64,000 bases of DNA from an uncultured Anaerolinea sp. (lineage in GTDB: Bacteria > Chloroflexota > Anaerolineae > Anaerolineales > UBA4823), in NCBI GenBank assembly GCA_964503625.1, contig CAZDAU010000002.1, positions 32,768 through 96,767 of the forward strand. Reading direction: 5' to 3'. The notes under the pieces are model-generated. The model was not told the DNA's origin, searched no databases, and saw only the letters and a program-made list of their open reading frames with translations. Position numbers and translations under genes: made by a program. The first letter of the stretch is position 1. Each line of letters opens with the position of its first letter. Of the stretch, positions 14,359 to 40,371 are shown piece by piece.

Positions 14359-14433
14359 ATCCTTGGTGATGATTGATCTCTTTGCGAACTTTGTGTTTTA
14401 CTCTAAATCTCTGCCCGGAGGCCTAAAGCTAGT

Positions 14434-15501: not shown

Positions 15502-15548
15502 TGCTGTGTTTTTGTTGATGCGGGCCGGGCGAAAAAACCAAACCGCTG

Positions 15549-16706: not shown

Positions 16707-17521
16707 AATTGTCCCAGACTGTTGCTATCATACAAGCCCGAATGGGTTCCTCCCGCCTGCCTGGCAAAGTGCTGCTCGATATTGCCGGGCAACCGATGCT
16801 GGGCCGCGTGGTTGAGCGGACGCGCCAGGCAAAGACCATCGATCAGGTGATTGTTGCCACAACCGTCGAGCCAGGCGACGACCCGGTGGCTGACTATTGT
16901 GACGCCCACGGATACCCGGTCTATCGCGGCAGCCTGCACGACGTGCTCGATCGTTACTACCAGGCGGCCCGTTGGTCCGCAGCAGAAACTGTGGTGCGCA
17001 TCACCGCCGATTGTCCTCTAATCGATCCTGAGGTTGTCGACCGGACTGTCCAGGCTTTTCATGGGGCAGATCTGCCGCATTTGCAATGCCTGAACCCTGG
17101 TTTGCCGGGCGGCTACGCGTTTTGCGCCAACCGCTTGCCGCCGCCCTGGGGGCGCACCTACCCCATTGGCCTGGATACAGAGGTTTGCGCATTCACCGAC
17201 CTGGAGACTATTTGGAAAGAAGCCCAGGAGCCGCATCAACGCGAGCATGTGATGCCCTTTTTTTATGATCACCAGGAACGCTTTAAGATCCTGCTGGTGC
17301 ATCACGAAACGGATTACGGCGCTTTGCGGCTGACCGTCGATACTGCTCAAGATTTAGAGCTGGTTCGTCAGGTCTTTGCCCGCTTTCCTGGGCGCGACGA
17401 CTTCTCCTGGCTGGATGTTGTGGCTTTGCTTGAGCGCGAGCCTGCTCTGCTGGCCATCAATGCCCAGGTGCAGCACAAACATTATCGCCAGGTGGATGAG
17501 CGGCGCGCTCACCTCGGATAA
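16703..17521 (+). CDS. SpsF-type cytidylyltransferase (CMP-Kdo-synthetase homolog)
   Basis: VAIIQARMGSSRLPGKVLLDIAGQPMLGRVVERTRQAKTIDQVIVATT...YRGSLHDVLDRYYQAA...VVRITADCPLIDP. ATGA overlap with the upstream gene. Confidence 0.8.
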   Translation: MKLSQTVAIIQARMGSSRLPGKVLLDIAGQPMLGRVVERTRQAKTIDQVIVATTVEPGDDPVADYCDAHGYPVYRGSLHDVLDRYYQAARWSAAETVVRITADCPLIDPEVVDRTVQAFHGADLPHLQCLNPGLPGGYAFCANRLPPPWGRTYPIGLDTEVCAFTDLETIWKEAQEPHQREHVMPFFYDHQERFKILLVHHETDYGALRLTVDTAQDLELVRQVFARFPGRDDFSWLDVVALLEREPALLAINAQVQHKHYRQVDERRAHLG

Positions 17522-20488: not shown

Positions 20489-21556
20489 TTGAGCAGCGCG
20501 AATCCGGATCAAGAGACTGGTATGCCCTATTCCCTTAGTCAACGTATTGCCCTGGCTTTGCGCATCCTGCGCCGGGGTGATGCTCCGCCATCTGCCCGTC
20601 GGGAGGTGCCGCCCATCACCCTGGATGAGATTTCCGAAGTCAGGACATTCTTCCCGCTGGACAAGTTCTTTGTTTTCGGCCACGCTCGCTCGGGGACGAC
20701 GATGCTGACGCGCCTGGTCCGTCTGCACCCAGAAGTGCATTGCGATTACCAGGCCCATTTCTTCACCCGTTCTCCGCTGCTTGAGAGCCTGGTGGCGGAT
20801 GCCGAAGTGGGCGAATGGCTCTCGCGCGGCAGCAACCGCTGGAACCGTGGCAAAGATCTGTCGCCGGTTGTTTTGCGCGTTGCTGCCGATTACATCCTGG
20901 AGCGCGAGGCGCGCCGGGAAGGCAAGCGCATTGTCGGTGATAAGAGCCCCAACAGTCTGCTGGATGGCGAAGCAGTGCGCCTGATGCACAAGGTATATCC
21001 AGATGCCCGACTGATCTATATCGTGCGCGACGGGCGGGATGCCGTGGTTTCGCACCGTTTTCAGTCTTTTATTGAATTTCCGGAGCGGCTTTCCAAGGAA
21101 GACCAGCAGTTGCGCGCCCGGTTTGCTCGCGCCCCGCAGCCTTTCTTATCTGGGGAGCAGTCGATATTTACCCAGGCGGCCATCACCCGCGCCGCCCAGG
21201 GCTGGGTCCGCAACGTCACTCAGACCGACCAGGAGGGGCGGGAGCTGTTCGGCGAACGCTACCTTTCCCTGCGTTACGAAGACCTGCTCCACCAGCCCTG
21301 GGAGCAGATGCGCCGGGTATGGGAATTCTTGGGCGCTTCTCCGGCGGACGAAGATCTGCACCAGGCGTTGCTGGCTGAAATGACCCGCAATCCCGACGCC
21401 GATTGGCAGCAGCAAAAAGCCAAAGATATTGCCCAATCGCTGCAGAAAGGCAAGCGGGGTTCCTGGCGCGAGCTGTTCACCCCTCGCGACCGGCAAATCT
21501 TTCGCCAGTTTGCTGATGAAACGCTGCTTGCCTGGGGATACGAGGCCACGCCTTGA
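20489..21556 (+). CDS. Sulfotransferase (ST2)
   Basis: VFGHARSGTTML, YIVRDGRDAVVSHRF and GSWRELFTPRDRQIF. TTG start at 20489 from the ORF track; the first ATG is at 20522. Confidence 0.85.
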   Translation: MSSANPDQETGMPYSLSQRIALALRILRRGDAPPSARREVPPITLDEISEVRTFFPLDKFFVFGHARSGTTMLTRLVRLHPEVHCDYQAHFFTRSPLLESLVADAEVGEWLSRGSNRWNRGKDLSPVVLRVAADYILEREARREGKRIVGDKSPNSLLDGEAVRLMHKVYPDARLIYIVRDGRDAVVSHRFQSFIEFPERLSKEDQQLRARFARAPQPFLSGEQSIFTQAAITRAAQGWVRNVTQTDQEGRELFGERYLSLRYEDLLHQPWEQMRRVWEFLGASPADEDLHQALLAEMTRNPDADWQQQKAKDIAQSLQKGKRGSWRELFTPRDRQIFRQFADETLLAWGYEATP

Positions 21557-22539
21557 AGATCCTTATCGCAGGCTTTGGCTCAATTGGCCGCCGCCATTTC
21601 CATAACCTGCTGGCGCTGGGCGAGCGGGACATTCTGTTTTATCGCAGCGGGCGCAGCACGCTCCCCGATGATGAATTGAGAGACTATCCGCTGGAAACTG
21701 ATCTGCAGGCTGCGTTAGCGCGCCGCCCACAAGCAGTGATTGTTGCCAACCCGACTGCGTTGCACCTACAGGTGGCCATTCCGGCTGCAGCCGCGGGATG
21801 TAGCCTGCTGCTTGAGAAACCGGTCTCCCACACGTTGGATGGGCTCACCGAGCTTCAAGAAGCTGTGCAGAAAAGCGGGGCAAAGGTCCTGGTGGGTTAT
21901 CAATTTCGCTTTCATCCGGGCCTGCGCCAGGTGAAACAGCTGTTTGATGGCGGGATGATCGGCCGCATGGTCTCGGTTCGCGCCCATTGGGGCGAATACC
22001 TTCCTGGCTGGCACCCCTGGGAGGACTACCGCCAGGGTTACAGTGCCAGGCAAGACCTGGGGGGCGGCGTGGTTTTGACCCTGTGCCATCCGCTGGATTA
22101 CCTGCGCTGGTTGTTTGGGGAGATTACCGCTCTCTGGGCTTTTACTGGTCAATTGAGCGGTTTGGAGCTGAGCGTTGAAGACACTGCTGAGATTGGACTG
22201 CGCTTTGCCGGTGGCGCCCTGGGAAGCCTGCACCTGGATTTCTGCCAGCGCCCACCTTCCCACTACCTGGAAGCAATTGGCACCCAGGGCACGATCCGCT
22301 GGGATAACTCGGATGGCGCTGTTCATCTCTACCGCGCTGGTCCAGATCAGTGGATGAATTTTCCTGCCCCGGAAGGGTTTGAGCGCAACAGCATGTTTCT
22401 TGACCAGATGCGCCATTTTCTGGCGGTTGTTCGTGGCGAAGCTGAGCCGTCTTGCACCCTGCACGACGGTCTTCAAGCGCTGCGACTGGTCCTGGCAGCC
22501 GGCCTATCGCAATCGCAAGGACGGTGCATTGATCTGTGA
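21553..22539 (+). CDS. Gfo/Idh/MocA-family NAD(P)-dependent oxidoreductase
   Basis: MKILIAGFGSIGRRHFHNLL...LLEKPVSHTL. TTGA overlap with the upstream stop. Confidence 0.8.
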   Translation: MKILIAGFGSIGRRHFHNLLALGERDILFYRSGRSTLPDDELRDYPLETDLQAALARRPQAVIVANPTALHLQVAIPAAAAGCSLLLEKPVSHTLDGLTELQEAVQKSGAKVLVGYQFRFHPGLRQVKQLFDGGMIGRMVSVRAHWGEYLPGWHPWEDYRQGYSARQDLGGGVVLTLCHPLDYLRWLFGEITALWAFTGQLSGLELSVEDTAEIGLRFAGGALGSLHLDFCQRPPSHYLEAIGTQGTIRWDNSDGAVHLYRAGPDQWMNFPAPEGFERNSMFLDQMRHFLAVVRGEAEPSCTLHDGLQALRLVLAAGLSQSQGRCIDL

Positions 22540-22544
22540 AAAAC

Positions 22545-22553
22545 TGCTATAAT
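22545..22553 (+). promoter_or_regulatory. Extended -10 promoter element TGCTATAAT upstream of sat-cysC
   Basis: Exact TGnTATAAT in the 69-nt spacer between 22539 and 22608. Confidence 0.5.
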
Positions 22554-22592
22554 TGCCGCTTGTGCTATCAAGCGAACTATTGAACTATTTGA

Positions 22593-24389
<1,797 letters not shown>

Positions 24390-24412
24390 GAATCTTTGGT
24401 TTGGTCTATTTC

Positions 24413-24452
24413 CCCAGGTCTGGCGGTTGCCCTGGTTGCTGCCAGGCCTGGG
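24413..24452 (+). terminator. Strong GC-rich hairpin downstream of sat-cysC (terminator-like, no U-tract)
   Basis: CCCAGGTCTGGC (24413-24424) pairs with GCCAGGCCTGGG (24441-24452). That is 12 bp including one G-U pair, with a 16-nt loop, starting 24 nt after the stop codon. Confidence 0.35.
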
Positions 24453-24491
24453 TCACTGCCAGAGACCGCCCTTCTGGTGGATAATTTCATC

Positions 24492-25364
24492 ATGGCCCCC
24501 AACTTGTCTCAAACGAATCCTGCCTCCACCCGCTCGGCGCTTGATCTTTTCAGCTTGTCTGGCCGGGCGGCGATCGTCACTGGCGGCGCAGGGCTGCTGG
24601 GTGCGCAATTCTGTCGCACCCTGGCCCAGGCCGGTGCTAAGGTTGCGGTTGCCGACATCGATGGACCTGCCGGGGACGCTCTGGCCCAGGACCTGATGAA
24701 CCAGGGCCATCAGGCTATTGCGGTGCGCGCCGACGTCACCGATCCAGCGTCTGTCCGGCAGATGGTGGCTGCGACGGTCAATGCGTTTGGCCGGTTAGAC
24801 ATCCTGGTCAACAGCGCCGCCCTGGACCCAAAGTTCGACCCCAAGCAAGTCGCCAACGAGTTCACGTATTCTGAATCGGGCGCGTTCGAAGACTTTCCGC
24901 TGGCTGCCTGGGAGCAGGCGCTGGCGGTCAACCTGACCGGCGCTTTTCTGTGTTGCCAGGCCGGCGTGGAGCCCATGCTCAGGCAGGGCGGCGGCGTGAT
25001 CATCAACCTTTCGTCCATTTATGGCCTGGCAGGCCCCGACCAGCGCATCTATCAGCGGGCGGGTCAACCACCGCGCTACAAGCCGGTCTATTACTCTGTA
25101 ACCAAGGCGGGAATCTTGGGGTTGACCCGTTACCTGGCGACCTATTACGCCGGGCGAAACATTCGCGTCAACACCCTCACCCCTGGCGGGGTGTTCAATG
25201 GGCACGAAGATACCTTCGTGCAGGCATACTCTGCCCGGGCTGTGCTGGGGCGGATGGCTGATAGAAATGAACTGAACGGCGCGCTCCTCTTCCTGGCTTC
25301 CGATGCTTCCGCTTACATGACCGGGGCCAATCTGGTGGTGGATGGTGGCTGGACGGCCTGGTAG
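24492..25364 (+). CDS. Short-chain dehydrogenase/reductase (SDR)
   Basis: AAIVTGGAGLLG, NSAA, SSIYG and YSVTKAG (YxxxK). The start is moved to ATG 24492; the ORF-track start 24396 lies in the hairpin-containing spacer. Confidence 0.85.
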   Translation: MAPNLSQTNPASTRSALDLFSLSGRAAIVTGGAGLLGAQFCRTLAQAGAKVAVADIDGPAGDALAQDLMNQGHQAIAVRADVTDPASVRQMVAATVNAFGRLDILVNSAALDPKFDPKQVANEFTYSESGAFEDFPLAAWEQALAVNLTGAFLCCQAGVEPMLRQGGGVIINLSSIYGLAGPDQRIYQRAGQPPRYKPVYYSVTKAGILGLTRYLATYYAGRNIRVNTLTPGGVFNGHEDTFVQAYSARAVLGRMADRNELNGALLFLASDASAYMTGANLVVDGGWTAW

Positions 25365-26102
25365 ATGACCGAGACGCTTGCCTTGATCCCGGCCCGCGGC
25401 GGCTCGAAAAGCATCCCGCGCAAGAATATCCGCCCGTTTGCCGGGCATCCCTTGATTGCCTACAGCATTGCCGCCGGCCTGGCTGCGGAAATGGTCACCC
25501 GGGTGGTTGTTTCCACCGATGATGAGGAGATTGCGGCAGTTGCTCGGCGGTACGGCGCAGAGACGCCTTTCTTGCGCCCGGCTGCGCTATCCCAGGACCA
25601 CACGGCCGACTTGCCGGTCTTCCAGCATGCCCTGGAATGGTTGGGCGAGAACGAGGGCTACCAGCCCGAGATTGTTGTTCAGTTGCGCCCAACTTCGCCT
25701 TTCCGGCGGGTGAGCCATATTGATCAGGCAATCTATCGCTTACTCGAGCGTCCGGAGGCCGACTCGGTGCGCACAGTATGCGTGCCCTTTCAGAATCCTT
25801 TCAAGATGTGGCGCATCGATTCGAGTGGGTTCATGCAGCCATTGCTTGGGGCAGAATACCCTGAGCCATATAATATGCCTCGCCAGCTTTTGCCCCAGGT
25901 GTATTGGCAGACCGGTTATGTGGATGTCGCCTGGACGGATACAATTTTGCAGAAGGGTTCAATGACTGGCGATCGCATCCTGCCCCTGGTCATCGATTCC
26001 AGCGAATGGATTGACATCGACTCACCCGACGATTGGCGCCGGGCCGAGCGCTTGCTGGAAAGCGGCGAAATAACGCTGGAGGACCTGGGTTTCCAATTCT
26101 AA
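25365..26102 (+). CDS. neuA: Acylneuraminate (nonulosonate) cytidylyltransferase, NeuA/CMP-sugar synthetase family
   Basis: ALIPARGGSKSIPRKNIRPFAGHPLIAYSIAAG...VVVSTDDEEIAAVARRYGAETPFLRPAALSQDHTADLPVFQHAL...QLRPTSPFR. Confidence 0.88.
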   Translation: MTETLALIPARGGSKSIPRKNIRPFAGHPLIAYSIAAGLAAEMVTRVVVSTDDEEIAAVARRYGAETPFLRPAALSQDHTADLPVFQHALEWLGENEGYQPEIVVQLRPTSPFRRVSHIDQAIYRLLERPEADSVRTVCVPFQNPFKMWRIDSSGFMQPLLGAEYPEPYNMPRQLLPQVYWQTGYVDVAWTDTILQKGSMTGDRILPLVIDSSEWIDIDSPDDWRRAERLLESGEITLEDLGFQF

Positions 26103-26146
26103 GAACGCGGCCTTTGGCTGGCGGATAGACCCGAGGAGATTAATGA

Positions 26147-28099
26147 ATGCCTGTAATAAAAATTGGTGACCGGCTGGTAGGCGATGGACAGCCAACCTAT
26201 ATCATCGCTGAGATTGGCGTCAACCATAATGGTTTCCTGGATCTGGCTTTGAAGCTGATCGATGTGGCGGTTGACTCCGGCGCCGACGCGGTCAAGTTCC
26301 AGAAGCGCAAGTTGGAAAAGCTGTACGCTAAAAAATACCTGGAGAACGCCAACGCTGGCGAGAAGACGCTGCGCTACCTGCTGCCCATCTTGCAGCAGGT
26401 TGAGCTGGCGGACGAAGAATATTACCGCATTGTTGAGTATTGCCAGAAAAAAGGGATTACCTTTCTGTGCTCGGCTTTTGACGCCGATAGCGCCGATTTC
26501 CTGGAAGAGCTTGGAGTGCCAGCCTATAAAGTCGCCTCGGCTGACTTGACCAACCTGCCGCTGCTGGATCACCTGATCAAGAAAGGCAAACCGCTTATCC
26601 TGTCCACCGGGATGTCCCATATGCACGAGGTCGAGCTGACCGTGGAGTTCTTGAAGGAGCGCCACGCGGAGTTTGCCTTGCTGCACTGCAACAGCACTTA
26701 CCCGGCGGCGTTTGAGGATATCAACCTGCGCTTCATGGATCAACTGCGCCGCTTCGGCGTGCCGGTGGGCTACTCTGGGCACGAGCGCGGCATTGCGGTC
26801 TCCACCGTGGCTTCGGTGTTGGGCGCCAGCATCATTGAGCGCCACCTGACCCTGGACCGGACAATGGAAGGGCCAGACCATGCCGCCAGCCTGGAGCCTC
26901 AGGGTTTCAAGAAGATGGTGCGCGATATTCACCAGGTCGCCCTCTCGTTGGGCACCGGTGAAGAGAAGTACATCTCTCGCGGCGAGATCCTCAATCGAGA
27001 GGTGCTTGGCAAAAGCCTTGTGGCGGCGCGCCGGATCCAGCCTGGCGAAGTGATCACCGCCAACATGGTGGCAGTGAAAGGCCCGGCTTTGGGTCTTTCG
27101 CCCCAGAACTACACCCGCCTGGTTGGCCGTACTGTTGAGCGGGTGATCGAAGAAGACGAGCCGTTTCTGGATCGCGACCTGGGCATAAGGATCGAGCTGG
27201 ATGTTGAGCATGTTTTGCCCATGGAATATGGTTTCACCGTCCGCTTTCGCGATTTTAGCAGTCTGCTGGCTTACCGGCCGCGCATGCTGGAATTTCACTT
27301 TACGGATCAGGATCTGGATGAGCGCTATCCTGGCGATGACTTCAGCGCCGGCTCGGCTCTGCCGCTCAAGCTGGTGGTTCACGCTCCAGAATTTTGGGAC
27401 CGCTCCTTGGTTGACCTGTGCGCTCTGGATGAGCGGCATCGCAGAGCCTCGTGTGATCTGCTCCAGAAGACGATTGACCTGACCCGCGCAATGGCGCCTT
27501 ATTTTGTTGGCATGCCCAAGGTGGTCATTCATCCTGGCGCGATGAGCCTGGATCATCCGATCCGGGAAAAACAAGTGTTGTACGATAGGCTTCGCCGCTC
27601 GATGAGCGAGCTGGAAGCACAGGGTGTTGAGCTGCTGCTGGAAAATTTGCCGCCCCATCCGTGGTATTTTGGCGGGCAGTGGCTGACCAACGCATTTATG
27701 GACGCCGAGGAAATTCGAGATTTCATCGTACCGCTGGGGCTCAAATTCTGTTACGACTCATCCCATCACAAGCTGTACTGTAACTGGGCGCATGTCGATT
27801 TTTATGATCAACTGGCAACAATATTGCCGCACATTGGTCACCTGCACCTTTCGGACGGCGCTGGGCTGGATGGCGAGGGTCTTCAGATTGGCGAGGGCGC
27901 AATCGATTGGGTGCGTTTCTTCCGTGTTTTGGGCGAGTATCATGGCACGATGATCCCCGAGATTTGGCGCGGCCACCAGCGAGGTGGAGAGGGTTTCTTA
28001 ATCGCCATACAACGCCTGAGCGACGCTTATTTTGCCAGCCAGTCCGAAATTGCCAGCGGACACGGCGTCTTTGGAGCTGCAAAAGACCTCTATGCCTAA
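26147..28099 (+). CDS. Fusion protein: NeuB-family synthase + SAF domain + xylose-isomerase-like TIM barrel (sugar-phosphate isomerase/epimerase family)
   Basis: N-terminus QPTYIIAEIGVNHNGFLDLALKLIDVAVDSGADAVKFQKR...GYSGHERG...IIERHLTLDR. SAF region SLVAARRIQPGEVITANMVAVKGP. C-terminal region of about 300 aa: LEFHFTDQD...LVVHAPEFW...VVIHPGAMS...LLLENLPP...CYDSSHHKLY...IGHLHLSDGAGLDGEGLQIGEGAIDWVRFF. Confidence 0.85.
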   Translation: MPVIKIGDRLVGDGQPTYIIAEIGVNHNGFLDLALKLIDVAVDSGADAVKFQKRKLEKLYAKKYLENANAGEKTLRYLLPILQQVELADEEYYRIVEYCQKKGITFLCSAFDADSADFLEELGVPAYKVASADLTNLPLLDHLIKKGKPLILSTGMSHMHEVELTVEFLKERHAEFALLHCNSTYPAAFEDINLRFMDQLRRFGVPVGYSGHERGIAVSTVASVLGASIIERHLTLDRTMEGPDHAASLEPQGFKKMVRDIHQVALSLGTGEEKYISRGEILNREVLGKSLVAARRIQPGEVITANMVAVKGPALGLSPQNYTRLVGRTVERVIEEDEPFLDRDLGIRIELDVEHVLPMEYGFTVRFRDFSSLLAYRPRMLEFHFTDQDLDERYPGDDFSAGSALPLKLVVHAPEFWDRSLVDLCALDERHRRASCDLLQKTIDLTRAMAPYFVGMPKVVIHPGAMSLDHPIREKQVLYDRLRRSMSELEAQGVELLLENLPPHPWYFGGQWLTNAFMDAEEIRDFIVPLGLKFCYDSSHHKLYCNWAHVDFYDQLATILPHIGHLHLSDGAGLDGEGLQIGEGAIDWVRFFRVLGEYHGTMIPEIWRGHQRGGEGFLIAIQRLSDAYFASQSEIASGHGVFGAAKDLYA

Positions 28100-29777
28100 A
28101 CCTAACCTCTGGTCCCGGATTTCTGGTTGGCGTAACCACCTGCGGGTGTTTCGCATGGCGCGCCAGGTTGCGGCGCACATTCCCAAGACATCCATTGCCC
28201 AGCCGGTGGTTTTCTTCAACGCATCCACACGCATCACCGGGCTGAGCCAGAACGCTGCGTTCACCCTGCTCACAAGCTGGGCATTGCGCCTTTCGGGAGT
28301 GCCGGTGAGTCATTTTGTCTGCCAGTCGGGGATGAGCCATTGTGTGCTTGGCACCAACCGGGAGAACTACCATAAGGCGCCGCCTTGCCGGGCTTGCCTG
28401 CGCCAATCCCGCCGCCTTTATAAAGACGCAGAAGTGTACTGGTTTCCCTATCATCCAGACCCTGAGCTGGCTGCCGAACTCAAGGGGTTGAGCGTGGACG
28501 AGCTGAGCGCCTTTGAGTACAACACCATCAAAGGTTCCTTGGTCACTCCGGGGCTCTCGACGCCCCTGGGTTGGTTGGTGCTTCCATCAGTCCGTTGGGC
28601 TTTGCGCCGCCATACTCTGCCTAACGATGAAGAGACGCGCTATCTGCTTCGCTCGTATATCCTCTCGGCTTACAATGTTGCTCAGGAATTTTCGGCTTTC
28701 CTGGATCAGACCAGGCCATCGGCTGCGGTGATTTTCAATGGAATCATGTATCCAGAAGCCACTGCTCGTTGGGTGGCCCAGACCCGCGGCCTGCGCGTGA
28801 TCACTTACGAAGTGGGCTTTCAGCGCCATTCGGCTTTTTTCACCGAAGGAGAAGCCACGGCCTACCCCATTTACATCCCCAAAGATTTTGAGCTGAACGA
28901 GAGGCAAAACGCCCGCCTGGACGAATATCTGCAAAAGCGTTTCCAGGGTCATTTCACCATGGCAGGGATCCGTTTCTGGCCTGAAATGCATGGCCTGGAC
29001 CAGGCCTTCTTAAATAAAGCCGCTCGTTTCCGCCAGATCGTGCCGGTTTTCACCAATGTCGTCTACGACACCAGTCAGGTTCACGCCAACAAAATCTTCC
29101 CGCACATGTTTGCCTGGTTGGATAGCGTTTTGGAGCTTATCCGCTCGCACCCCGAAACACTGTTTGTCATCCGGGCTCACCCGGATGAGATGCGCCCGGG
29201 CACGGCCAAGCAAAGCAGAGAAAGCGTGCGTGATTGGGTGGCAGCCAATGGCCTGAAGAAGATGGCCAATGTGGTTTTCATCGATTCGCAGGAGTACGTC
29301 AGCTCCTACGAGTTGATCCAGCGGGCCAAATTTGTCATGGTCTACAACTCATCGATTGGCATGGAGGCAGTGCTGCAAGGCAAACCGGTGCTTTGCGGCG
29401 GCAAGGCGCGTTACACGCAGTACCCCATGGTCTTCTTCCCCGAGACGCCCGCCGCTCACCAGGAGATGGCGCAGGCGTTTCTGGCCGCTGAAAAGATCGA
29501 TGTCCCGGATGAATTTCGCAGCAATGCCCGCCGTTTTCTGTATTACCAGCTTTTCCGCTCTTCGCTGAGCTTTGAGCCCTATCTCCAGGATGTGCGCCGC
29601 AAGGGCTATGTGCAGTTGGCTCCCTTTTCCTGGCAAGATTTGTTGCCGGAGAACGCCCCCACCTTGCAAGTGCTGGTGAATGGCATCGTTGGTGAGCATC
29701 TGGAACGCCAGGCTCGCTTGCGCAGCACAGCAGGCGCTGGTGAGCTTCCTCTATTCTTGGCGGAGGATGAAGCATGA
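28092..29777 (+). CDS. Capsule-synthesis family (KpsC/KpsS-like) putative ulosonic-acid glycosyltransferase, paralog 2
   Basis: The ATG at 28092 overlaps the upstream gene by 8 nt. VPVFTNVVYDTSQV...TLFVIRAHPDE...FVMVYNSSIGMEAVLQGKPVLCGG aligns by eye with 9800..11455. It contains a Cys cluster, CQSGMSHC...CRAC, absent from paralog 1. Confidence 0.6.
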   Translation: MPKPNLWSRISGWRNHLRVFRMARQVAAHIPKTSIAQPVVFFNASTRITGLSQNAAFTLLTSWALRLSGVPVSHFVCQSGMSHCVLGTNRENYHKAPPCRACLRQSRRLYKDAEVYWFPYHPDPELAAELKGLSVDELSAFEYNTIKGSLVTPGLSTPLGWLVLPSVRWALRRHTLPNDEETRYLLRSYILSAYNVAQEFSAFLDQTRPSAAVIFNGIMYPEATARWVAQTRGLRVITYEVGFQRHSAFFTEGEATAYPIYIPKDFELNERQNARLDEYLQKRFQGHFTMAGIRFWPEMHGLDQAFLNKAARFRQIVPVFTNVVYDTSQVHANKIFPHMFAWLDSVLELIRSHPETLFVIRAHPDEMRPGTAKQSRESVRDWVAANGLKKMANVVFIDSQEYVSSYELIQRAKFVMVYNSSIGMEAVLQGKPVLCGGKARYTQYPMVFFPETPAAHQEMAQAFLAAEKIDVPDEFRSNARRFLYYQLFRSSLSFEPYLQDVRRKGYVQLAPFSWQDLLPENAPTLQVLVNGIVGEHLERQARLRSTAGAGELPLFLAEDEA

Positions 29778-30761: not shown

Positions 30762-31013
30762 ATGAGTTCAAATCCATCGTTGACTGCCCAGGTGCAGGCT
30801 TTGCTGGCAGAAGCCATCCAGGCACCACCGGAACTGGTGACCGCTGACCTGGCCTTTGGTGATCTGCCGCAGTGGGATTCGCTGGGCCATATGGAAGTGA
30901 TGTTGCGTTTGGAAGAGCAGTATGGGATTGCCATCGACGCAGAGATCATCGCCCACCTGGTCAGCATCCCCGAAATCTGCAAGTACCTGGAGGCAAACGG
31001 CCATGTCCACTGA
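30762..31013 (+). CDS. Acyl/aminoacyl carrier protein (phosphopantetheine attachment site)
   Basis: 83 aa. LAFGDLPQWDSLGHMEVMLRLEEQYGIAI carries the DSLG serine motif of ACP/PCP-type carriers. Confidence 0.85.
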   Translation: MSSNPSLTAQVQALLAEAIQAPPELVTADLAFGDLPQWDSLGHMEVMLRLEEQYGIAIDAEIIAHLVSIPEICKYLEANGHVH

Positions 31014-32214
31014 GCCGGCAGCCTTCTCCACCAGGATTGAATTTGAGCCAGCTACACCGATCCCCGATTACCTGACGGGCGAGATCCAATCCAAGCTGGC
31101 CTACGTGGATGAGCGAATCCTCCAGGCCCAGGTGCACACAGACCGGATCATCCTGGAGGTGCGGTCCTGGGAGGCAAACCAGCCTGCGCCAGGGCTGGAA
31201 GAGAAGGTCCAGCGCGTCGTCCTTTCCATGGCAAAAGGGGCGATCAAGCCCAGGCTACAGGTGCTGGAAGATCATCTGGACCGCCCCGTTCCCTTTGGCG
31301 ACGACCCGATGGCTGAGTTGCTGGCCTCCGGCCAGGTCAGCCAGGAAGCCAATGGCATCTACGTCTTGGGCCCATTAGTCACTCGCTTGATTGATTTCTT
31401 TGAAGGCCAATTTCTTGCCCTGGCGGAGTCGTTTGGTGCGTCGCCATATCGATTCCCCACCTTGATCCCGGCGCGCTATCTGGAGCGGGTGAACTACTTT
31501 CGCGCTTTTCCGCACTCTTTAACGTTTGTCACTCATCTGCGCGAAGACCTGGATGTGATTGATGAATTTTCCCAGCACGCAGCCTGCGATCGTGAAGGGC
31601 TGACAACCCCGCTGGACTCGTTTGCCTCTATCCAGGCTTTGCTCTCACCCGCGGTGTGCTATCACCTGTATTTTGCCCTGGCCGACCAGCCGCTGCCCGG
31701 AGGCCAGGCGGTGGCCACGGCGGTGGGCAACTGCTTTCGCTACGAGGCGATCAATCTGACCTCCCTGGAGCGCATGTGGAACTTCACCATGCGGGAAGTT
31801 ATCTTTATGGGGCCAAAGGATTTTGTGCTGGAAAATCGAGAAATCGCCCGCCAGCGCATGGCGAAATTCTTTGAACAGATTGGTTTAGCGTACCGAGTTG
31901 AGAGCGCCAACGATCCCTTTTTCATCGGTGAATTCCGCAAGCAGGCGGCTTTTCAAAGCGCCTTTCAATTGAAATTTGAAATCCGCGCCCTTCTGCCCTT
32001 TAAGAGCGCCACCCTGGCGATTGGCTCATATAACTACCATCAGGATTTCTTTGGGCGCAGTCTGAATATCAGCCTGCCGGATGGTTCACCCGCCCACACG
32101 GGGTGTGTGGCCTTTGGACTGGAGCGGGTCGCTTTTGCCTTCCTGGCACAGTTTGGCCTGGACCCTGCAGGCTGGCCGGCGCATGTCCGTGAGCATCTTG
32201 CAAAACCAAAGTGA
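31003..32214 (+). CDS. Amino acid:[carrier protein] ligase, class-II (seryl-tRNA-synthetase-like) catalytic core
   Basis: The ATG at 31003 overlaps the carrier-protein gene. Class II motif 2-like GNCFRYEA and motif 3-like GCVAFGLERVAFAFLAQFG. Candidate Zn ligands lie in SPAVCYH and HTGCVAFG, as in methanogen-type SerRS and the rhizobial aa:CP ligases. No SerRS-like long coiled-coil tRNA arm is apparent in the first 130 aa. Confidence 0.7.
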   Translation: MSTEPAAFSTRIEFEPATPIPDYLTGEIQSKLAYVDERILQAQVHTDRIILEVRSWEANQPAPGLEEKVQRVVLSMAKGAIKPRLQVLEDHLDRPVPFGDDPMAELLASGQVSQEANGIYVLGPLVTRLIDFFEGQFLALAESFGASPYRFPTLIPARYLERVNYFRAFPHSLTFVTHLREDLDVIDEFSQHAACDREGLTTPLDSFASIQALLSPAVCYHLYFALADQPLPGGQAVATAVGNCFRYEAINLTSLERMWNFTMREVIFMGPKDFVLENREIARQRMAKFFEQIGLAYRVESANDPFFIGEFRKQAAFQSAFQLKFEIRALLPFKSATLAIGSYNYHQDFFGRSLNISLPDGSPAHTGCVAFGLERVAFAFLAQFGLDPAGWPAHVREHLAKPK

Positions 32215-32253
32215 CATCACAGTAATGCAATTCAGATTTCGGAGCGTCAAACC

Positions 32254-32748
32254 ATGAATGAAGATGACGTCATCTATCGCCAGGCCACCGAAGCGGATTT
32301 CCCCGTCGTGGCATCGATGTATGCCAAGCTGGATCAGCTGCTTCGTCAGCACACCTACACTTTTCCTGAGGTTGAAAACGTGGGTGAGCTTTGGCTGGAA
32401 ATGTTCCGCCGCACGCTAGGACGCTTTAGTGTGCTGTACGTGGCAGAGCACCAGGGTGAAGTGGTGGGATTCATCGTTGCCCGGGTGAAGCGAGTGCCGG
32501 AATACCTGGGTGGAGTGATGGTTGGTGAGTTGAAAGACATGTGGGTTGAGCACAAAGTGCGCCGCCTGGGAATTGGAGAAAAGCTGCTCCGTATGGCCAT
32601 CGAGTGGTGCCGCGAGCAAAAGGTCTATTCTGTTGAAGCCCAAATCCTGCTTGGCAACGAGCCAATCATCAAGCTGGTTGAGCATCTGGGGATGAAGAAA
32701 GAGCTTTACCAGCTGCGCATGATGTGGGAAGACTATAACGAGGGATAG
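32254..32748 (+). CDS. GNAT-family N-acetyltransferase
   Basis: 164 aa. GEVVGFIVARV...WVEHKVRRLGIGEKLLRMAIEWCRE matches the Q/RxxGxG/A acetyl-CoA motif. Confidence 0.8.
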   Translation: MNEDDVIYRQATEADFPVVASMYAKLDQLLRQHTYTFPEVENVGELWLEMFRRTLGRFSVLYVAEHQGEVVGFIVARVKRVPEYLGGVMVGELKDMWVEHKVRRLGIGEKLLRMAIEWCREQKVYSVEAQILLGNEPIIKLVEHLGMKKELYQLRMMWEDYNEG

Positions 32749-32815
32749 GAAATCAGGATTTATCCTCTCATGGGTAATGGTTAAGCATCCCTGATTCCCA
32801 GAATCCTGAATTTGC

Positions 32816-33580
32816 ATGCAAGAAGTCACCAAAGATCAAGTGGTTGCCTGCCTGACCAGCCTGGGTGTCTGCCCTGGCGATGGCCTGCTGGTGCATTCGG
32901 CGGTGCAATATCTGGGCCTGCCACGGGGAGGCGTGGGAATGTACCTGGAAGCCATCCAGGATGTGATTGGCCCCGAGGGCACGTTGGTGGTGCCGGCTTT
33001 CAATTTTGGCTTTGCCAGGGGCGAGCGTTACGACCCCGGTGAAACGCCCTCCCAGGGCATGGGTGCCTTCTCGGAGTATGTCCGCCGGCTGCCTGGGGCG
33101 CGGCGCACGCTGCATCCGATGCAGTCGGTGGTGATTCTAGGGCGCTATGTTGACGATTTGTCAGGCCGCGACACCTTTTCGGCCTTCGACCCGGGCTCGG
33201 CATTTGAGCGCATGTTGGAATTGGACTTCAAGCTGCTGCTATTGGGCGCCGACTCACGGGCAATCGCTATGTTCCACTACTGTGAACAGCGGGCCAAAGT
33301 GCCTTACCGCTACTGGAAGGATTTCACCGGCGAAGTGCGCACCCCCGATGGTTGGCAGACTCGCACATACCGCATGTTCGTCCGCGATCTGGAACTGGAT
33401 CCTCAGCTCACATTGGAACCGGTGGTCGCTTACCTGGAAGCGCGTGGTCAGTGGCTATCCACCTGGCTGAACTACGGACAGATCACAGTTTGCCGCCTGG
33501 CCGATTTTGTTGCCGCCGCCGACCGTTTCCTGGCGGATGATCCCTGGTCGTTGGTCAAGAATCGTCCCCCCATGAAATAG
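32816..33580 (+). CDS. AAC(3)-family N-acyltransferase (aminoglycoside N3-acetyltransferase fold)
   Basis: LTSLGVCPGDGLLVHSAVQYLGLPRGGVGMYLEAIQDVIGPEGTLVVPAFNF...TLHPMQSVVILG is the typical AAC(3)/Antibiotic_NAT N-terminal pattern. Confidence 0.75.
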   Translation: MQEVTKDQVVACLTSLGVCPGDGLLVHSAVQYLGLPRGGVGMYLEAIQDVIGPEGTLVVPAFNFGFARGERYDPGETPSQGMGAFSEYVRRLPGARRTLHPMQSVVILGRYVDDLSGRDTFSAFDPGSAFERMLELDFKLLLLGADSRAIAMFHYCEQRAKVPYRYWKDFTGEVRTPDGWQTRTYRMFVRDLELDPQLTLEPVVAYLEARGQWLSTWLNYGQITVCRLADFVAAADRFLADDPWSLVKNRPPMK

Positions 33581-33824
33581 GCGTTCTTTGGAATGAGATT
33601 TTGAAGACCGCAACCCAAAGTTCAGGTCTTTTACTATTGGCAACCATATTGGCGGTTTTGCTTTCATTCTGGCGGCAACTATCCAATTTTTCCCTTTTGC
33701 GGTTCTACCTGGCAGCTACCTGCCCCGGCCTTTTTGGGCTGCTTTCGCCAGCGAAGGTCTTGGAATAAACCAGCGTTGGCGAACAGTCCGTAGGCCATAG
33801 CACCATGCTACTGATGAATGTCCG

Positions 33825-35132
33825 ATGAGTGATCCGATTGAATTGATCCATGCGCTCTGGTTCCTCCAGCGGAACCTCGTTTCTGATGAATATGACCAGG
33901 CGTTGTACCGCCTGCGCGATGAAATGGGGGGGCGTATGGTGATCCACGAATACGCCACTGGAGAAACCTGCTGGACCTGGCGCATTCCGGAAAAGTGGAC
34001 CTGTGACCAGGCCTATCTGGAGGCGTTGGATGGTCGCCGTCTGGTGGATGCTGCAAACCACCCTCTCCACGTGGTGTCTTATTCGCTGCCGTTTGAAGGT
34101 ATTGTGTCGCGTTCCGAGTTGCTTCAGCACCTGCACGTTCACCCACGCCTCCCTGAAGCCATTCCATTCGTGTTTAAGTATTACCAGCGCGATTGGGGGT
34201 TGTGCCTGACGCAGGTTCAGCGGGATGCACTGACCGATGAATCCTATCGGGTCGTCATCCGCTCACGTTTTGAGCCGGGCGCGCTGAAGGTGGGCGAAGT
34301 GGTCATCCCCGGCGAGAGTGATGAAACCTTTGTCCTGGTTGCCCATCTGTGCCATCCAGCGATGGTGAACGACGACCTGACCGGGGTGGTGGTGGGCCTG
34401 GAGGTGGCCCGGGAGCTGCTGGCAGGCCCTCGGCCCTATTACACCTACCGCTTGCTGATCTTGCCGGAGACAATTGGCTCTGTTGCTTACTTGAGCCATC
34501 ATGAAAATCTGATCTCCAGGATGATTGGTGGGCTGTTTCTGGAAATGCTGGGCAACGACTCGCCCCACGCCCTGCAAGGATCTTTCACGCCGCACAGCCA
34601 GCCCGACCGTTGCTTTGTCTCTGCTTTGCCTGGCCTCGACCCGCAGAGCTACCATGCCCCTTATCGGATGGTGATTAACAACGATGAGCGCCAGTTCAAT
34701 GCCCCAGGCGTGCGTGTGCCCATGCTTTCGCTCTCCAGGGTGCTGCGGCGCGATTCGCCCGAGTGGCCTTACCCGGAGTATCATTCCAGCCTGGATACCC
34801 CTGCAATCATCACTTCAGAGCGCCTGGAGGCTTCAAAACAGGTGGTTTTGGGCTTGATCCATGCCTTTGAGCGCAACCAGTATGTGGTTAATTTATTTAA
34901 GGGTGAGGTCTTCTGCTCTGGTTACGGCATCTGGATTGATTACCGGGTAAACCCGGAGGGCCATCGCCGCCTGTTTGATATCATGGAACGTTGTGATGGC
35001 GAGCGCACCATCGCCGATATTGCTGCTGACTTGGGCGTCACCTTCCAGGCGGTCTGGCAAGTGGTCGACCTGCTCCAGCAGAAAGGTTTGGTGAGGTTTA
35101 GCCGTACGCCTGCCCCCACCTCCCCGCGCTAA
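33825..35132 (+). CDS. Aminopeptidase-like domain protein (DUF2172/DUF4910 type) with C-terminal winged helix
   Basis: VIHEYATGETCWTWRIPEKW...FVLVAHLCHPAMVNDDLTGVVVGLEVAREL...YTYRLLILPETIGSVAYLSHHE. C-terminal CDGERTIADIAADLGVTFQAVWQVVDLLQQKGLV. Matches my recollection of the COG4310 family common in glycan loci. Confidence 0.65.
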   Translation: MSDPIELIHALWFLQRNLVSDEYDQALYRLRDEMGGRMVIHEYATGETCWTWRIPEKWTCDQAYLEALDGRRLVDAANHPLHVVSYSLPFEGIVSRSELLQHLHVHPRLPEAIPFVFKYYQRDWGLCLTQVQRDALTDESYRVVIRSRFEPGALKVGEVVIPGESDETFVLVAHLCHPAMVNDDLTGVVVGLEVARELLAGPRPYYTYRLLILPETIGSVAYLSHHENLISRMIGGLFLEMLGNDSPHALQGSFTPHSQPDRCFVSALPGLDPQSYHAPYRMVINNDERQFNAPGVRVPMLSLSRVLRRDSPEWPYPEYHSSLDTPAIITSERLEASKQVVLGLIHAFERNQYVVNLFKGEVFCSGYGIWIDYRVNPEGHRRLFDIMERCDGERTIADIAADLGVTFQAVWQVVDLLQQKGLVRFSRTPAPTSPR

Positions 35133-35153: not shown

Positions 35154-36017
35154 TTGGACCTTTATTTCACCACCAAACACTTGCTCAAATCGGTTCGCTG
35201 GCAAGGCCGGCGGGCTATCGTTGCTCTGCGCTGGGGCCCGGCGGCCCTGCACAGAGCTCCAGCGGTGCTGGGCAACGCCATGCCCAAGTCTGGATCGCAC
35301 CTGATTAACCAGGTGGTGCAGGGGCTGACCCGCCTGGGCCCATTCGTCAACTCGGGCTTTCCCCCGGTCAATCGCGACGAAGTCAACGACAAGCTGCCCG
35401 AAGCTCAGGTGTTGGCCAACTTGAACCGCATGCGCCCCGGCGATATTGGCTATGGCTATATCAAGGCCCAGCAGCCCTTTGTTTCGTTGCTCACCCGGCC
35501 GGGATGGGCAACCATTTTTGTTTATCGTGACCCGCGGGACATGCTGATCTCGCATGTCTTTTACGCCACGCAGATGCACAAAGGCCACGGCATGCACCGC
35601 TATTACACCGAGACATTGCAGACGATGGAGGAGCGCATCAATGCCGCCATCCAGGGGGTGGAAGAGCCCGGCTCTCAGCTTTCGCCCGTGCGAGTCAAGT
35701 ACGAGGGTTATCTGGGCTGGCTGGAACAACCGGCTGTGCTCAGTTTGCGCTTTGAGGACCTGATCCTGGACCGCCCTGCAGCCCTGGGGCGCATTCTGGA
35801 TTATCTGGTCCAGCGTGGTTTTGTTCCCCACCTGCCCCGCGATCAGGAGATTGCCATATTGGAGCAGGCCATCGCCCCCAAAAAGTCCGGCACATTTCGC
35901 AAAGGACAGCCGGGCAACTGGAAAGATTATTTCACCCCTGCGAATAAGATTCTCTTCAAAGAGATGGCCGGCGATTTGTTGATCCAGTTGGGGTACGAAA
36001 GCGACCAGGATTGGTGA
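35154..36017 (+). CDS. Sulfotransferase (ST3)
   Basis: LGNAMPKSGSHLINQV, VYRDPRDMLISHVFY and GTFRKGQPGNWKDYF. Paralog of 36625..37524. Confidence 0.85.
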   Translation: MDLYFTTKHLLKSVRWQGRRAIVALRWGPAALHRAPAVLGNAMPKSGSHLINQVVQGLTRLGPFVNSGFPPVNRDEVNDKLPEAQVLANLNRMRPGDIGYGYIKAQQPFVSLLTRPGWATIFVYRDPRDMLISHVFYATQMHKGHGMHRYYTETLQTMEERINAAIQGVEEPGSQLSPVRVKYEGYLGWLEQPAVLSLRFEDLILDRPAALGRILDYLVQRGFVPHLPRDQEIAILEQAIAPKKSGTFRKGQPGNWKDYFTPANKILFKEMAGDLLIQLGYESDQDW

Positions 36018-38578: not shown

Positions 38579-39244
38579 ATGACCCGCCTCGTCGCCCTCG
38601 TCCCGATGCGGCATCACTCGCAGCGTGTGCCGGGCAAAAATTACCGCCTGCTGGCAGGTAAGCCGCTCTATCAGCACATCATCGTTACCCTGCTCGCCTG
38701 CCCGGAGATTGCCCAGGTGGTTGTGGACACGGATAGCCCGCCAATCATCCAGGGGCTGCAGCGTGATTTTCCTCAGGTGCTCGTCCTGGAACGGCCGGAG
38801 CGCCTGCGCGCGGATCATATCCCAATGAATGAGATCCTGATCTATGACACAAGCCAGGTGCAGGCCGATCTTTACCTGCAAACTCACACCACCAACCCTT
38901 TGCTGCGCCCGCAAACGATCTCATCTGCGATCCAGTCCCTCCTGGCGAGCTACCCGGCTCACGACTCGCTCTTCTCTGTTACCCGGTTGCAGACCCGCCT
39001 GTGGGATCAACTTGGCCGAGCAATCAACCACAACCCGGCGATCTTGCTCCAGACACAGGACCTGCCGCCGGTCTTTGAAGAGAACTCCTGCCTGTATATC
39101 TTCACCCGTCAGGTGCTCTTGGAACGGCGCAATCGTCTGGGTGAGCGCCCGATGATGTTTGAGATTGATGCTGCCGAAGCCTGGGACATCGATGAAGAAC
39201 TGGATTTTGAGATCACTAATTTCCTGATGAGCCGAGCAAAATAA
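38579..39244 (+). CDS. Cytidylyltransferase, CMP-NeuAc-synthetase-like family (third copy in the locus)
   Basis: LVALVPMRHHSQRVPGKNYRLLAGKPLYQHIIVTLLACPEIAQVVVDTDS...THTTNPLLRP. Confidence 0.75.
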   Translation: MTRLVALVPMRHHSQRVPGKNYRLLAGKPLYQHIIVTLLACPEIAQVVVDTDSPPIIQGLQRDFPQVLVLERPERLRADHIPMNEILIYDTSQVQADLYLQTHTTNPLLRPQTISSAIQSLLASYPAHDSLFSVTRLQTRLWDQLGRAINHNPAILLQTQDLPPVFEENSCLYIFTRQVLLERRNRLGERPMMFEIDAAEAWDIDEELDFEITNFLMSRAK

Positions 39245-39247
39245 ACT

Positions 39248-40204: not shown

Positions 40205-40371
40205 CGTTCTGTCCAGTTTGCTGCCAGAATTTGGCAACCTCACCGACGGAAATCTTCGAGCTTTGTTCAGGCTGCTGGGCAATTGATATCGAACCTTGCT
40301 CAATGGATGGACAAAGCAACAGCCCGGCTGCTTTTGAAGGCCTGGCAACCGGATCACAGAAAGAGGAATAC

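Follow-up and report, generated by a model that had tools for sequence, protein, structure and literature searches.

What reaction would call for a sialic-acid-type synthase and a xylose-isomerase-like TIM barrel in the same polypeptide? The question is raised by a gene found in a 64,000-nucleotide (nt) stretch of DNA from an uncultured Anaerolinea sp. (assembly GCA_964503625.1, contig CAZDAU010000002.1, positions 32,768 to 96,767), here called the window. At window positions 26147..28099 of the plus strand, a NeuB domain, an SAF domain and a xylose-isomerase-like TIM barrel lie within one gene. Our best guess is that this gene encodes a bifunctional enzyme of a nonulosonic- or ulosonic-acid pathway. 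A more specific proposal, put forward tentatively, is that the NeuB half condenses phosphoenolpyruvate (PEP) with a phosphorylated aldose, and that the barrel then removes the phosphate.

The fusion gene and its family

The listing of open reading frames (ORFs) in the window features at this position a frame of 650 amino acids (aa), opened by ATG and with zero internal stops. Together with the Pfam matches, this confirms the claim of an earlier note on this DNA that a single ORF joins the three domains. The gene and its parts are:

26135..26140 (+), GAGGAG Shine-Dalgarno-like motif, 6 nt 5' of the ATG, read directly in the sequence
26147..28099 (+), whole fusion gene, a single ORF with Pfam domains and an architecture kept in homologs
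26255..26962 (+), NeuB PEP-condensing TIM-barrel domain, aa 37-272 (PF03102, E 1.8e-86)
27014..27181 (+), SAF / antifreeze-like domain, aa 290-345 (PF08666, E 7e-8)
27182..27223 (+), short inter-domain linker, aa 346-359, in frame, between the SAF end and barrel strand beta-1
27224..28054 (+), xylose-isomerase-like (beta/alpha)8 barrel, aa 360-636 (PF01261 AP_endonuc_2 at aa 407-610, E 4.6e-26)

The NeuB model (PF03102) scores 290 bits against a cut-off of 22.1, and covers profile positions 1-240 of 241; the AP_endonuc_2 model (PF01261) scores 92.5 bits against a cut-off of 31.1. The region at nt 27150-27300, in which a stop or a frameshift could have been hidden, is in frame and encodes the short linker, predicted with a local confidence (pLDDT) of ~81-85 in the full-length AlphaFold model of the monomer (mean pLDDT 88.9, predicted TM score (pTM) 0.70). 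An assembly artefact, a frameshift or a hidden stop at the junction were ruled out by the continuous ORF and the conserved architecture. An antisense ORF of 519 aa (26099..27658, minus strand) covers most of the fusion gene, opposite a plus-strand gene with strong family matches; it is probably a shadow ORF of the kind common where GC content is high.

Homologs of the full protein were searched among 5.8 billion proteins, and the best 120 matches were examined. All are 629-656 aa long and 80-90% identical; NeuB and AP_endonuc_2 are present in 120/120, with SAF called in 118/120, so that the survey of domain architectures found all the best homologs to share the arrangement seen in the window. 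Where the source is named, they come from metagenome-assembled genomes of Chloroflexota/Anaerolineales, the closest named relative being Chloroflexi bacterium RBG_16_57_11.

An exhaustive HMMER search with the barrel only (aa 352-650) as query retrieved 732 clusters (50% identity) at E <=1e-3, 396 of them at E <=1e-10. All 66 representatives of at least 590 aa found among the best 150 matches have NeuB N-terminal to the barrel; judged from these sequences, the barrel occurs almost only fused to NeuB. Two architectures can be distinguished, one of ~620-680 aa made up by NeuB, SAF and barrel (the window type), and one of ~730-770 aa with an added N-terminal CBS region. Free-living relatives of the barrel were considered as a functional clue and discarded, the matches of ~270-310 aa being mostly fragments of short or error-prone contigs. 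One 'standalone' barrel, P0326, resides in a complete 8.7-Mb genome, and directly follows a 120-aa NeuB/SAF remnant, which indicates a decayed fusion. Split or decayed fusions, either a NeuB/SAF remnant plus an intact barrel or adjoining NeuB and barrel calls, were observed in loci L002/L003 (9602-10852), L085 (2854-4678) and L086 (9091-11248); some of them, if not all, seem to reflect frameshifts from error-rich assembly, not natural two-gene forms.

The family was further monitored in one genome per GTDB species with a 7-sequence barrel query, and 80 loci were retrieved for context. Relatives of the barrel were found in at least 581 species, and the architecture, which the earlier note had set against the stand-alone NeuB, PseI and LegI enzymes, is thus not rare. 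Relatives with ~45% identity reside in Desulfobacterales and in a Candidatus Doudnabacteria genome, and both halves are in a single ORF of at least 560 aa in 70/80 retrieved loci. The CBS class is found in complete genomes of cultured cyanobacteria (Synechocystis sp. PCC 7339, Cyanobacterium aponinum, Crocosphaera, Dolichospermum), and of cultured Methylovorus glucosotrophus, Marinobacterium and Neptuniibacter. Any names that the databases give to these CBS-class proteins read 'N-acetylneuraminate synthase family protein' or 'sialic acid synthase SpsE/sugar phosphate isomerase/epimerase', and nothing more specific. In line with the earlier note, no characterized enzyme of this architecture matched in the libraries searched. 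No description of it was found in the literature on the architecture, on the Pfam and COG names, on nonulosonic acids in Chloroflexi or on MJ1311, the barrel relative discussed below. The family is abundant in databases and apparently unstudied.

Residues of the two halves

The NeuB half was aligned to the N. meningitidis enzyme SiaC (NmeNeuB; PDB 1xuu / 4ipi). The equivalents of NmeNeuB residues E25, K53, K129, S132, S154, S213, H215, E234, H236 and D247 are all present in the window protein (as E22, K50, K128, S131, S153, S210, H212, E231, H233 and D244), and these catalytic, metal and PEP residues are kept in at least 64/66 fusions. Their roles follow the structural literature on NmeNeuB. 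E25, E134 and E234 of NmeNeuB are confirmed as such residues (PMC8208679). The NeuB+SAF half thus keeps the catalytic residues for PEP-aldose condensation. The position that binds the sugar differs:

27080..27082 (+), Gly312 codon, at the position of NmeNeuB Arg314 (alignment to PDB 1xuu/4ipi)

Arg is found at this position in 0/66 diverse fusions (Ser 49, Gly 5, Thr 5, Ala 2, Ile 1), and Asp replaces Glu134 in 63/66 (Asp133 in the window protein); the equivalents of both Arg314 and Glu134 are retained in the unfused paralog of the window. Arg314 binds the N-acetyl carbonyl of N-acetylmannosamine (ManNAc); every bacterial NeuS that has an AFPL domain retains it, whereas mammalian N-acetylneuraminate (Neu5Ac) 9-phosphate synthase does not have it (PMC11339185); it is the sole conserved catalytic residue of the SAF domain (PMC8208679). 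The earlier note had called the NeuB domain complete. This holds for the catalytic core, not for the SAF-domain Arg, essential in bona fide bacterial Neu5Ac synthases (PMC11339185), which is missing. The position of the Asn that contacts the C6-OH of ManNAc is also not conserved among fusions.

The closest of the three references compared is human NANS (NP_061819.2, a sequence confirmed by exact look-up). The window NeuB half is 38.5% identical to NANS (245 bits), 33% to NmeNeuB (179 bits) and 31.6% to its own unfused paralog (169 bits), and in 60/67 fusions the score to human NANS exceeds the one to NmeNeuB. Residues Y77, D133, Y209, E213, G215 and L249 are family-wide and common to fusions and NANS only; Arg54, two residues past the sugar-contacting Gln, is specific to the fusions. 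The NANS-type signature of the fusions consists of the missing Arg314 equivalent, Asp at position 134 and a YSGHE motif. The window protein stays under the cut-offs of both the NeuB_NnaB equivalog TIGR03569 (354.7 bits vs. 399.65) and PseI TIGR03586 (251.8 bits vs. 340.25). By sequence, the NeuB half forms a sub-type of its own, which probably belongs with animal NANS and not with classical bacterial NeuB.

Fusions resemble NmeNeuB in the order of a NeuB TIM barrel followed by SAF and in the PEP and metal residues; they differ from it because they lack Arg314 (Gly312 in the window), Glu134 (Asp) and the C6-OH Asn, and carry an extra, catalytic-looking barrel of 300 aa. With NANS they have in common Asp at the Glu134 position, the lack of an Arg314 equivalent, and the YSGHE and DHxASL motifs. 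NANS is a stand-alone protein of 359 aa, and its phosphatase is a separate HAD enzyme of unrelated fold. The animal enzyme takes ManNAc-6-phosphate, and its product is dephosphorylated by that separate phosphatase (PMC8208679). In the logic proposed here, in which condensation of a phospho-sugar would be followed by dephosphorylation, the fusion resembles the pair formed by NANS and the HAD phosphatase NANP, and would act most like a synthase of the NANS type into which a further step has been built.

The barrel (aa 352-650), modelled by AlphaFold with a diverse 71-sequence alignment, is predicted with a mean pLDDT of 93.1 and a pTM of 0.91 as a (beta/alpha)8 fold with 8 strand/helix repeats. 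The similarity of the C-terminal part to TIM barrels, seen in the sequence by the earlier note, was borne out by this fold and by the PF01261 match above cut-off, and the motifs quoted there (HAPEFW, VIHPG, LENL, HLHLSDG) were all found, at the C-terminal ends of predicted beta-strands. Most of the putative active-site residues fall in one span:

27380..27976 (+), span with most putative metal/active-site residues (H412, H462, E499, D537, H540, H567, D570, E577, E605, H610); E382 lies upstream of the span

Residues E382, H412, D537, H540, H567, E577, G578, G584 and E605 are invariant in 101 diverse barrel domains, down to ~30% identity; D570 (100/101), D389 and G609 (99/101 each) and H610 (98/101) are kept almost as strictly. 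Barrel strand 5 is followed by a loop peculiar to the family, PPxPWxFGGQ (aa 502-511). In the model, the conserved residues are all at the C-terminal ends of beta-strands, the usual place of the active site in TIM barrels of this kind. The invariant His/Asp/Glu cluster at the predicted mouth argues for a metal-dependent enzyme, which the barrel almost certainly is, rather than a spacer. Two barrel sub-types can be distinguished at positions 462/499/500 (nt 27530-27646), which covary as H/E/N (the window) or N/Q/T. H/E/N is found in 18/25 representatives of ~630 aa; CBS-class representatives have Gln499 in 34/34, His462 in 0/34, and N/Q/T in 29/34.

In profile comparisons with PDB sequences, the barrel is best matched by MJ1311 of Methanocaldococcus jannaschii (3wqo, 'D-tagatose 3-epimerase-like protein'; E 1.3e-16), followed by four endonuclease IV sequences (E 2.6e-9 to 1.9e-5, one more at 1.6e-3), a putative sugar isomerase (1.4e-4), UlaE (9e-4) and tagatose epimerases (1e-2). 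Foldseek found 184 PDB matches at E <=1e-3; the 50 listed are all xylose-isomerase-like barrels with 11-19% identity, 3wqo first, then ketose epimerases, endonuclease IV, UlaE, xylose isomerases and MbnB. The best template-modelling (TM) score is that of UlaE (0.68/0.74). The fold comparison was tried as a means to fix the chemistry of the barrel, and confirmed the superfamily only. The consensus of NCBIfam models over 28 diverse barrels was tried to the same end, and gave a mixture without discrimination of CbiR phosphodiesterase (7), L-ribulose-5-phosphate 3-epimerase (7), fructoselysine 3-epimerase (6), hydroxypyruvate isomerase (5) and three endonuclease IV models (4, 3 and 2), all matches being weak. 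CbiR (NF041277) matches at 17.6-20.7 bits, below its threshold of 105 and to be read as resemblance only; the epimerase models give 12-22 bits against cut-offs of 200-350. The window barrel has no match to nfo (TIGR00587) at E <=0.01, and weak matches, far under the cut-offs, are found in 3/28 family members.

With MJ1311, the fusion barrel has in common the HAP, HPG, LEN, DxxH and HxHxxD motifs; it differs because MJ1311 is 19% identical, is a stand-alone protein, and carries a His at the position of Gly578, invariant in the fusions. MJ1311 is not known to have an assigned function, and gives no basis for functional transfer. Endonuclease IV (Nfo; PDB 5zhz, 8edd, 1xp3) has the same fold, and seven of the nine ligands of its trinuclear zinc site, as listed for the E. 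coli Nfo structure, align as identical residues in the window barrel (H412, H462, E499, D537, H540, H567, E605); its phosphoester hydrolysis is the model for the activity proposed. The 'DRH' ligand segment of endonuclease IV (Asp229/His231) is deleted or remodelled to DGEG in the barrel, with the invariant Gly578 at the His231 position; the barrel is fused to a sugar synthase, and DNA binding is not expected. Ketose and sugar-phosphate 3-epimerases (D-tagatose/D-psicose, UlaE) and xylose isomerase are similar in fold (TM 0.51-0.74) and in four core metal ligands; they differ in sequence (11-17% identity, profile E ~1e-3 to 1e-1), and in the CBS class Gln substitutes for the first catalytic Glu. 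The additional His ligands H412, H462 and H540 are not known to be part of the single Glu/Asp/His/Glu metal site of these enzymes. The sequences indicate that the barrel is a distinct metal-dependent family of the superfamily, to which homology assigns no chemistry.

Candidate reactions of the barrel

The flanking genes bear on the reaction. Three of them surround the fusion in the window:

24396..25364 (+), classical short-chain dehydrogenase/reductase (SDR) oxidoreductase; adh_short_C2 from aa 58-68, best NCBIfam model PRK09186
25365..26102 (+), CMP-type cytidylyltransferase, PseF/NeuA-like, 245 aa (PF02348), directly 5' of the fusion
28032..29777 (+), Capsule_synth (KpsS/KpsC-like) glycosyltransferase (PF05159), candidate ulosonic-acid transferase, with a weak BFO_1060-family glycosyltransferase match

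The cytidylyltransferase scores 170 bits to PseF (TIGR03584), under the cut-off of 205.7, and KdsB models are much weaker. Two starts were probably called too early: the SDR probably starts ~35 codons 3' of the TTG at 24396 (the ortholog in L001 has 287 aa), and the Capsule_synth gene near 28092 or later (the L001 ortholog, of 554 aa, starts 21 nt past the fusion stop). A cytidylyltransferase is directly 5' of the fusion in 47/70 loci, a KpsS-like gene directly 3' in 51/70, and an SDR no more than 5 kb away in 51/70 (Anaerolineales). In distant lineages most neighbours differ, while a CTP_transf_3 gene stays adjoining or close; this partner recurs in Chloroflexota, Desulfobacterota, Doudnabacteria, cyanobacteria and proteobacteria.

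A scan of 75 neighbours that had no other label and lie no more than 4 kb from the fusion found Epimerase_2 (NeuC-type) once, and no HAD or aminotransferase (DegT) families are among the 25 families listed for them. The commonest extra family is an SIS protein, clearly identified as the phosphoheptose isomerase GmhA (E 7.6e-54 to PDB 2xbl), which resides ~2-4 kb upstream of the fusion in eight Anaerolineales loci (L038, L056, L060, L061, L063, L067, L072, L076). In the GmhA loci of an Anaerolineales sub-clade it adjoins a conserved protein of ~598 aa without a PDB relative. GmhA is independently found near the fusion in Desulforapulum (L081 11995-12477), with kinase plus nucleotidyltransferase and split transketolase genes nearby; no GmhA was found in the window. 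In Neptuniibacter, a ManC gene with a mannose-6-phosphate isomerase domain is directly upstream of the fusion, and in Synechocystis an MptE-like gene follows it; to this Pfam family belong the Maf proteins, which have been linked to the attachment of nonulosonic acids to flagellin. A GDP-mannose-dehydratase-family SDR adjoins the fusion in Desulfobacterales and Doudnabacteria, and an NAD-dependent SDR-fold enzyme does so in L081-L083. The gene of 316-328 aa found 3' of the fusion in Desulfobacterales (orthologous in L080-L082) has no Pfam match and no similarity to KpsS-like or MptE-like proteins.

In the mechanism that we tentatively favour, the NeuB half would condense PEP with a phosphorylated, or at least not ManNAc-like, aldose to an ulosonate phosphate, and the endonuclease-IV/MJ1311-like metal centre of the barrel would hydrolyze the phosphate ester, standing in for the separate HAD phosphatase which animals and Bacteroides use in their routes. 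The upstream cytidylyltransferase would then activate the free acid with CMP, and the downstream KpsS-like enzyme would transfer it, fusion and cytidylyltransferase forming a self-sufficient three-step module fed from central sugar-phosphate pools. As a functional analogy only, the steps parallel condensation, dephosphorylation, CTP_transf_3 activation and Capsule_synth transfer in the 3-deoxy-D-manno-octulosonate (Kdo) pathway (KdsD-KdsA-KdsC-KdsB plus KpsS/KpsC). They differ because the condensing enzyme is of the NeuB and not the KdsA type, the cytidylyltransferase is PseF/NeuA-like and not KdsB-like, and the putative phosphatase is a TIM barrel and not a HAD protein. A phosphatase is proposed because the barrel associates almost exclusively with NeuB; because MJ1311 and endonuclease IV are its nearest solved sequence relatives, with 7/9 ligands identical; because the NeuB half has the NANS-like signature, and NANS uses ManNAc-6-phosphate; because no NeuC, PseG or HAD gene recurs nearby; because some loci carry a separate isomerase that forms an aldose phosphate (GmhA, or the mannose-6-phosphate isomerase domain of ManC); and because the CbiR phosphodiesterase is among the commonest weak NCBIfam matches.

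Several observations weigh against a phosphatase. Most small-molecule PF01261 enzymes are isomerases, epimerases or dehydratases, and the top Foldseek superpositions include the sugar-phosphate epimerase UlaE (TM 0.68-0.74), ketose epimerases and xylose isomerases; the weak NCBIfam matches are evenly mixed among chemistries. Gly578 at the position of endonuclease IV His231, and Asn/Gln at two ligand positions in the CBS class, indicate that a tri-metal phosphoesterase site is not intact. Similarity to NANS is no proof of phospho-sugar use, and a neutral sugar without a 2-acetamido group would account just as well for the missing Arg314. Some fusion genomes have an unfused NeuB with its own HAD neighbour, so that a phosphatase could act in trans; in a comparison made with a single HAD query, too weak to use, a detectable homolog was found beside 2/25 unfused paralogs and beside 0/71 fusions. 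The full-length monomer model (pTM 0.70) fixes no inter-domain or channelling geometry.

The earlier note had the attached barrel isomerize or epimerize the substrate or the product. In that form the idea is not supported, since the barrel does not resemble isomerases or epimerases in particular: it is nearest in sequence to MJ1311 and endonuclease IV, and isomerases match at E 1e-4 or weaker. It stays live all the same, nearly as likely as the removal of a phosphate. As a metal-dependent sugar or sugar-phosphate isomerase/epimerase, a role we deem possible if somewhat unlikely, the barrel would supply the aldose (from a ketose, or by gluco to manno conversion, in the manner of KdsD, NanE or NeuC), or epimerize the ulosonate. 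PF01261 membership and fold, the bias of the superfamily towards such chemistry, the best TM and root-mean-square deviation being those of the sugar-phosphate 3-epimerase UlaE, and the weak matches to hydroxypyruvate isomerase, fructoselysine 3-epimerase and L-ribulose-5-phosphate 3-epimerase all point in this direction, as does the Glu-Asp-His-Glu set of ketose 3-epimerases (E499, D537, H567, E605), present in the window barrel. Yet the first Glu of this two-Glu mechanism is Gln in 34/34 CBS-class representatives, whose function is presumably the same, profile likeness is orders of magnitude under that to MJ1311 and endonuclease IV, several loci already have a dedicated isomerase beside the fusion (GmhA or a mannose-6-phosphate isomerase domain), and the pathway would still be without a phosphatase if the substrate were a sugar phosphate.

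Hydrolysis may also precede condensation. A barrel freeing the aldose from a nucleoside diphosphate (NDP) sugar or a sugar-1-phosphate, a job done by PseG or by the hydrolyzing half of NeuC/LegG, seems unlikely to us. Both endonuclease IV and CbiR are phosphodiesterases, no PseG/NeuC-type gene recurs near the fusion, and the GDP-mannose-dehydratase-family SDRs adjoining it in Desulfobacterales and Doudnabacteria suggest, along with the kinase plus nucleotidyltransferase and GmhA genes of L081, that NDP-sugar intermediates occur just upstream of condensation. Such intermediates fit poorly with the Anaerolineales loci, the window included, where the SDR is a classical short-chain enzyme (best model PRK09186), not of the NDP-sugar dehydratase type, and no NDP-sugar nucleotidyltransferase is seen in the module. 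We rate as quite improbable that the barrel tailors the ulosonate into a new acid, either by dehydration/beta-elimination, as IolE, AsbF and LgdB-type enzymes would, or by multinuclear-iron oxidation in the way of MbnB/MNIO. MbnB structures and one MNIO model are among the weak matches, a Gfo/Idh/MocA oxidoreductase and an SDR sit in the conserved block (Gfo/Idh/MocA oxidoreductases often partner PF01261 barrels acting on keto-sugars), and the invariant set E382, H412, D537, H540, H567, D570, E577, E605 and H610 fits no characterized subfamily exactly; but dehydratase and MNIO matches are fewer and weaker than those of other classes, and an obligate, near-universal fusion fits an obligatory step better than an optional decoration. 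A barrel without catalysis, serving only structure or regulation, or a fusion created by assembly or annotation, is very hard to believe in: nothing positive speaks for either, although the full-length pTM is only 0.70, and seven invariant and two near-invariant His/Asp/Glu residues sit at strand ends across ~30%-identical homologs. The artefact is effectively refuted, as the architecture recurs in hundreds of assemblies made independently and in cultured strains with complete genomes, and the ORF has no stop or frameshift.

The inference of the earlier note that the pathway is non-canonical is supported by these data. We hold it doubtful, though worth stating, that the family marks a widespread, unrecognized branch of ulosonic-acid synthesis, in which a NANS-like synthase acts on a phospho-aldose of central metabolism and a new kind of second step is carried out on a xylose-isomerase fold. 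In clades with GmhA the substrate could be a heptose 7-phosphate, and the product a ten-carbon 3-deoxy-ulosonic acid, of which we know no bacterial example. The chemistry of the barrel, be it phosphatase on this fold or a new isomerization, dehydration or oxidation, may yield an uncatalogued ulosonic acid.

The surrounding glycan locus and the meaning of the fusion

The window is one large glycan locus, almost wholly on the plus strand. The other genes around the fusion are, in order:

21553, Gfo/Idh/MocA oxidoreductase
22608, ATP sulfurylase/APS kinase
29774, methyltransferase
30762-31013, carrier protein, 83 aa, DSL motif
30922, amino acid-[carrier protein] ligase, class II seryl-tRNA synthetase-related, true start probably near 31003
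32254 and 32816, two acetyltransferases (GNAT; Antibiotic_NAT family)
33825, DUF4910/M28 protein
35154, sulfotransferase

The trio formed by Gfo/Idh/MocA oxidoreductase, SDR and cytidylyltransferase resembles ptmF/ptmA/legF, on the basis of NCBIfam PRK09186 and the gene table of PMC4481668. The carrier protein, ligase, GNAT, Antibiotic_NAT and DUF4910/M28 genes form an aminoacyl-decoration cassette (30762-35132), kept in many Anaerolineales loci, L001 included. Three sulfotransferases and a fused ATP sulfurylase/APS kinase add sulfation genes to the locus (20489-24389, 35154-36017, 44658-45614), and several related loci also have sulfatase genes; the polysaccharide made here probably contains ulosonic acid and carries sulfate. 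Also found were genes for a Wzt-type ABC ATPase with Wzt_C, for an ABC-2 permease and for a protein of 969 aa that includes an alpha-L-rhamnosidase-like domain (8139-9803, 46427-47269, 48057-50966), and these indicate an ABC-transporter-dependent export of the glycan.

A second module, resembling those for ulosonic acids, occupies positions 12359-17521:

12359, PseB-like 4,6-dehydratase
13393, RmlD-like reductase
14434-15501, unfused NeuB+SAF paralog, which keeps Arg314 and Glu134
15549, GT4
16703, KdsB-like cytidylyltransferase

The paralog is the second, unfused NeuB homolog that the earlier note had placed here, and is confirmed as a NeuB+SAF gene. No aminotransferase resides in this module, which hints at a 9-deoxy, non-amino ulosonic acid as its product. 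At 38579-41983, the third CTP_transf_3 cytidylyltransferase of the window (38579) precedes genes for a D-2-hydroxyacid dehydrogenase (39248), for an SDR (40231) and for an MptE-like protein (41171); homologs of the first three of these four recur 3' of the fusion in many Anaerolineales loci. CMP-type activating enzymes thus number three in the window, NeuB-type synthases two. A MarR/winged-helix regulator followed by an NAD-dependent epimerase/dehydratase is found at 6100-7555, 19 kb from the fusion; in Desulfobacterales such a pair is directly upstream of the fusion (L081 7203-8916; L082 7210-8858).

On bacterial surfaces, nonulosonic acids (sialic, legionaminic, pseudaminic, Kdn) influence how hosts, phages and the environment recognize the cell. 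Predictions of their biosynthesis usually look for an established list of enzymes, each a separate protein, and schemes of this type would miss or mis-call the fusion family, which is annotated at most as an 'N-acetylneuraminate synthase family protein', is without the residue defining ManNAc recognition and has a second putative active site. Its carriers (at least 581 species genomes) include cultured cyanobacteria (Synechocystis, Crocosphaera, Cyanobacterium), methylotrophs, marine proteobacteria and Anaerolineales. If the barrel is the phosphatase of the pathway, bacteria would own an animal-like phospho-sugar route built on a different fold, and the fusion, together with a single cytidylyltransferase, would cover three steps with just two genes, a compactness of use in glyco-engineering. 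Should the barrel catalyze something else, a new sugar is the probable product. In both cases, the fusion marks a clear, testable gap in nonulosonic-acid biosynthesis, and one that touches culturable organisms.

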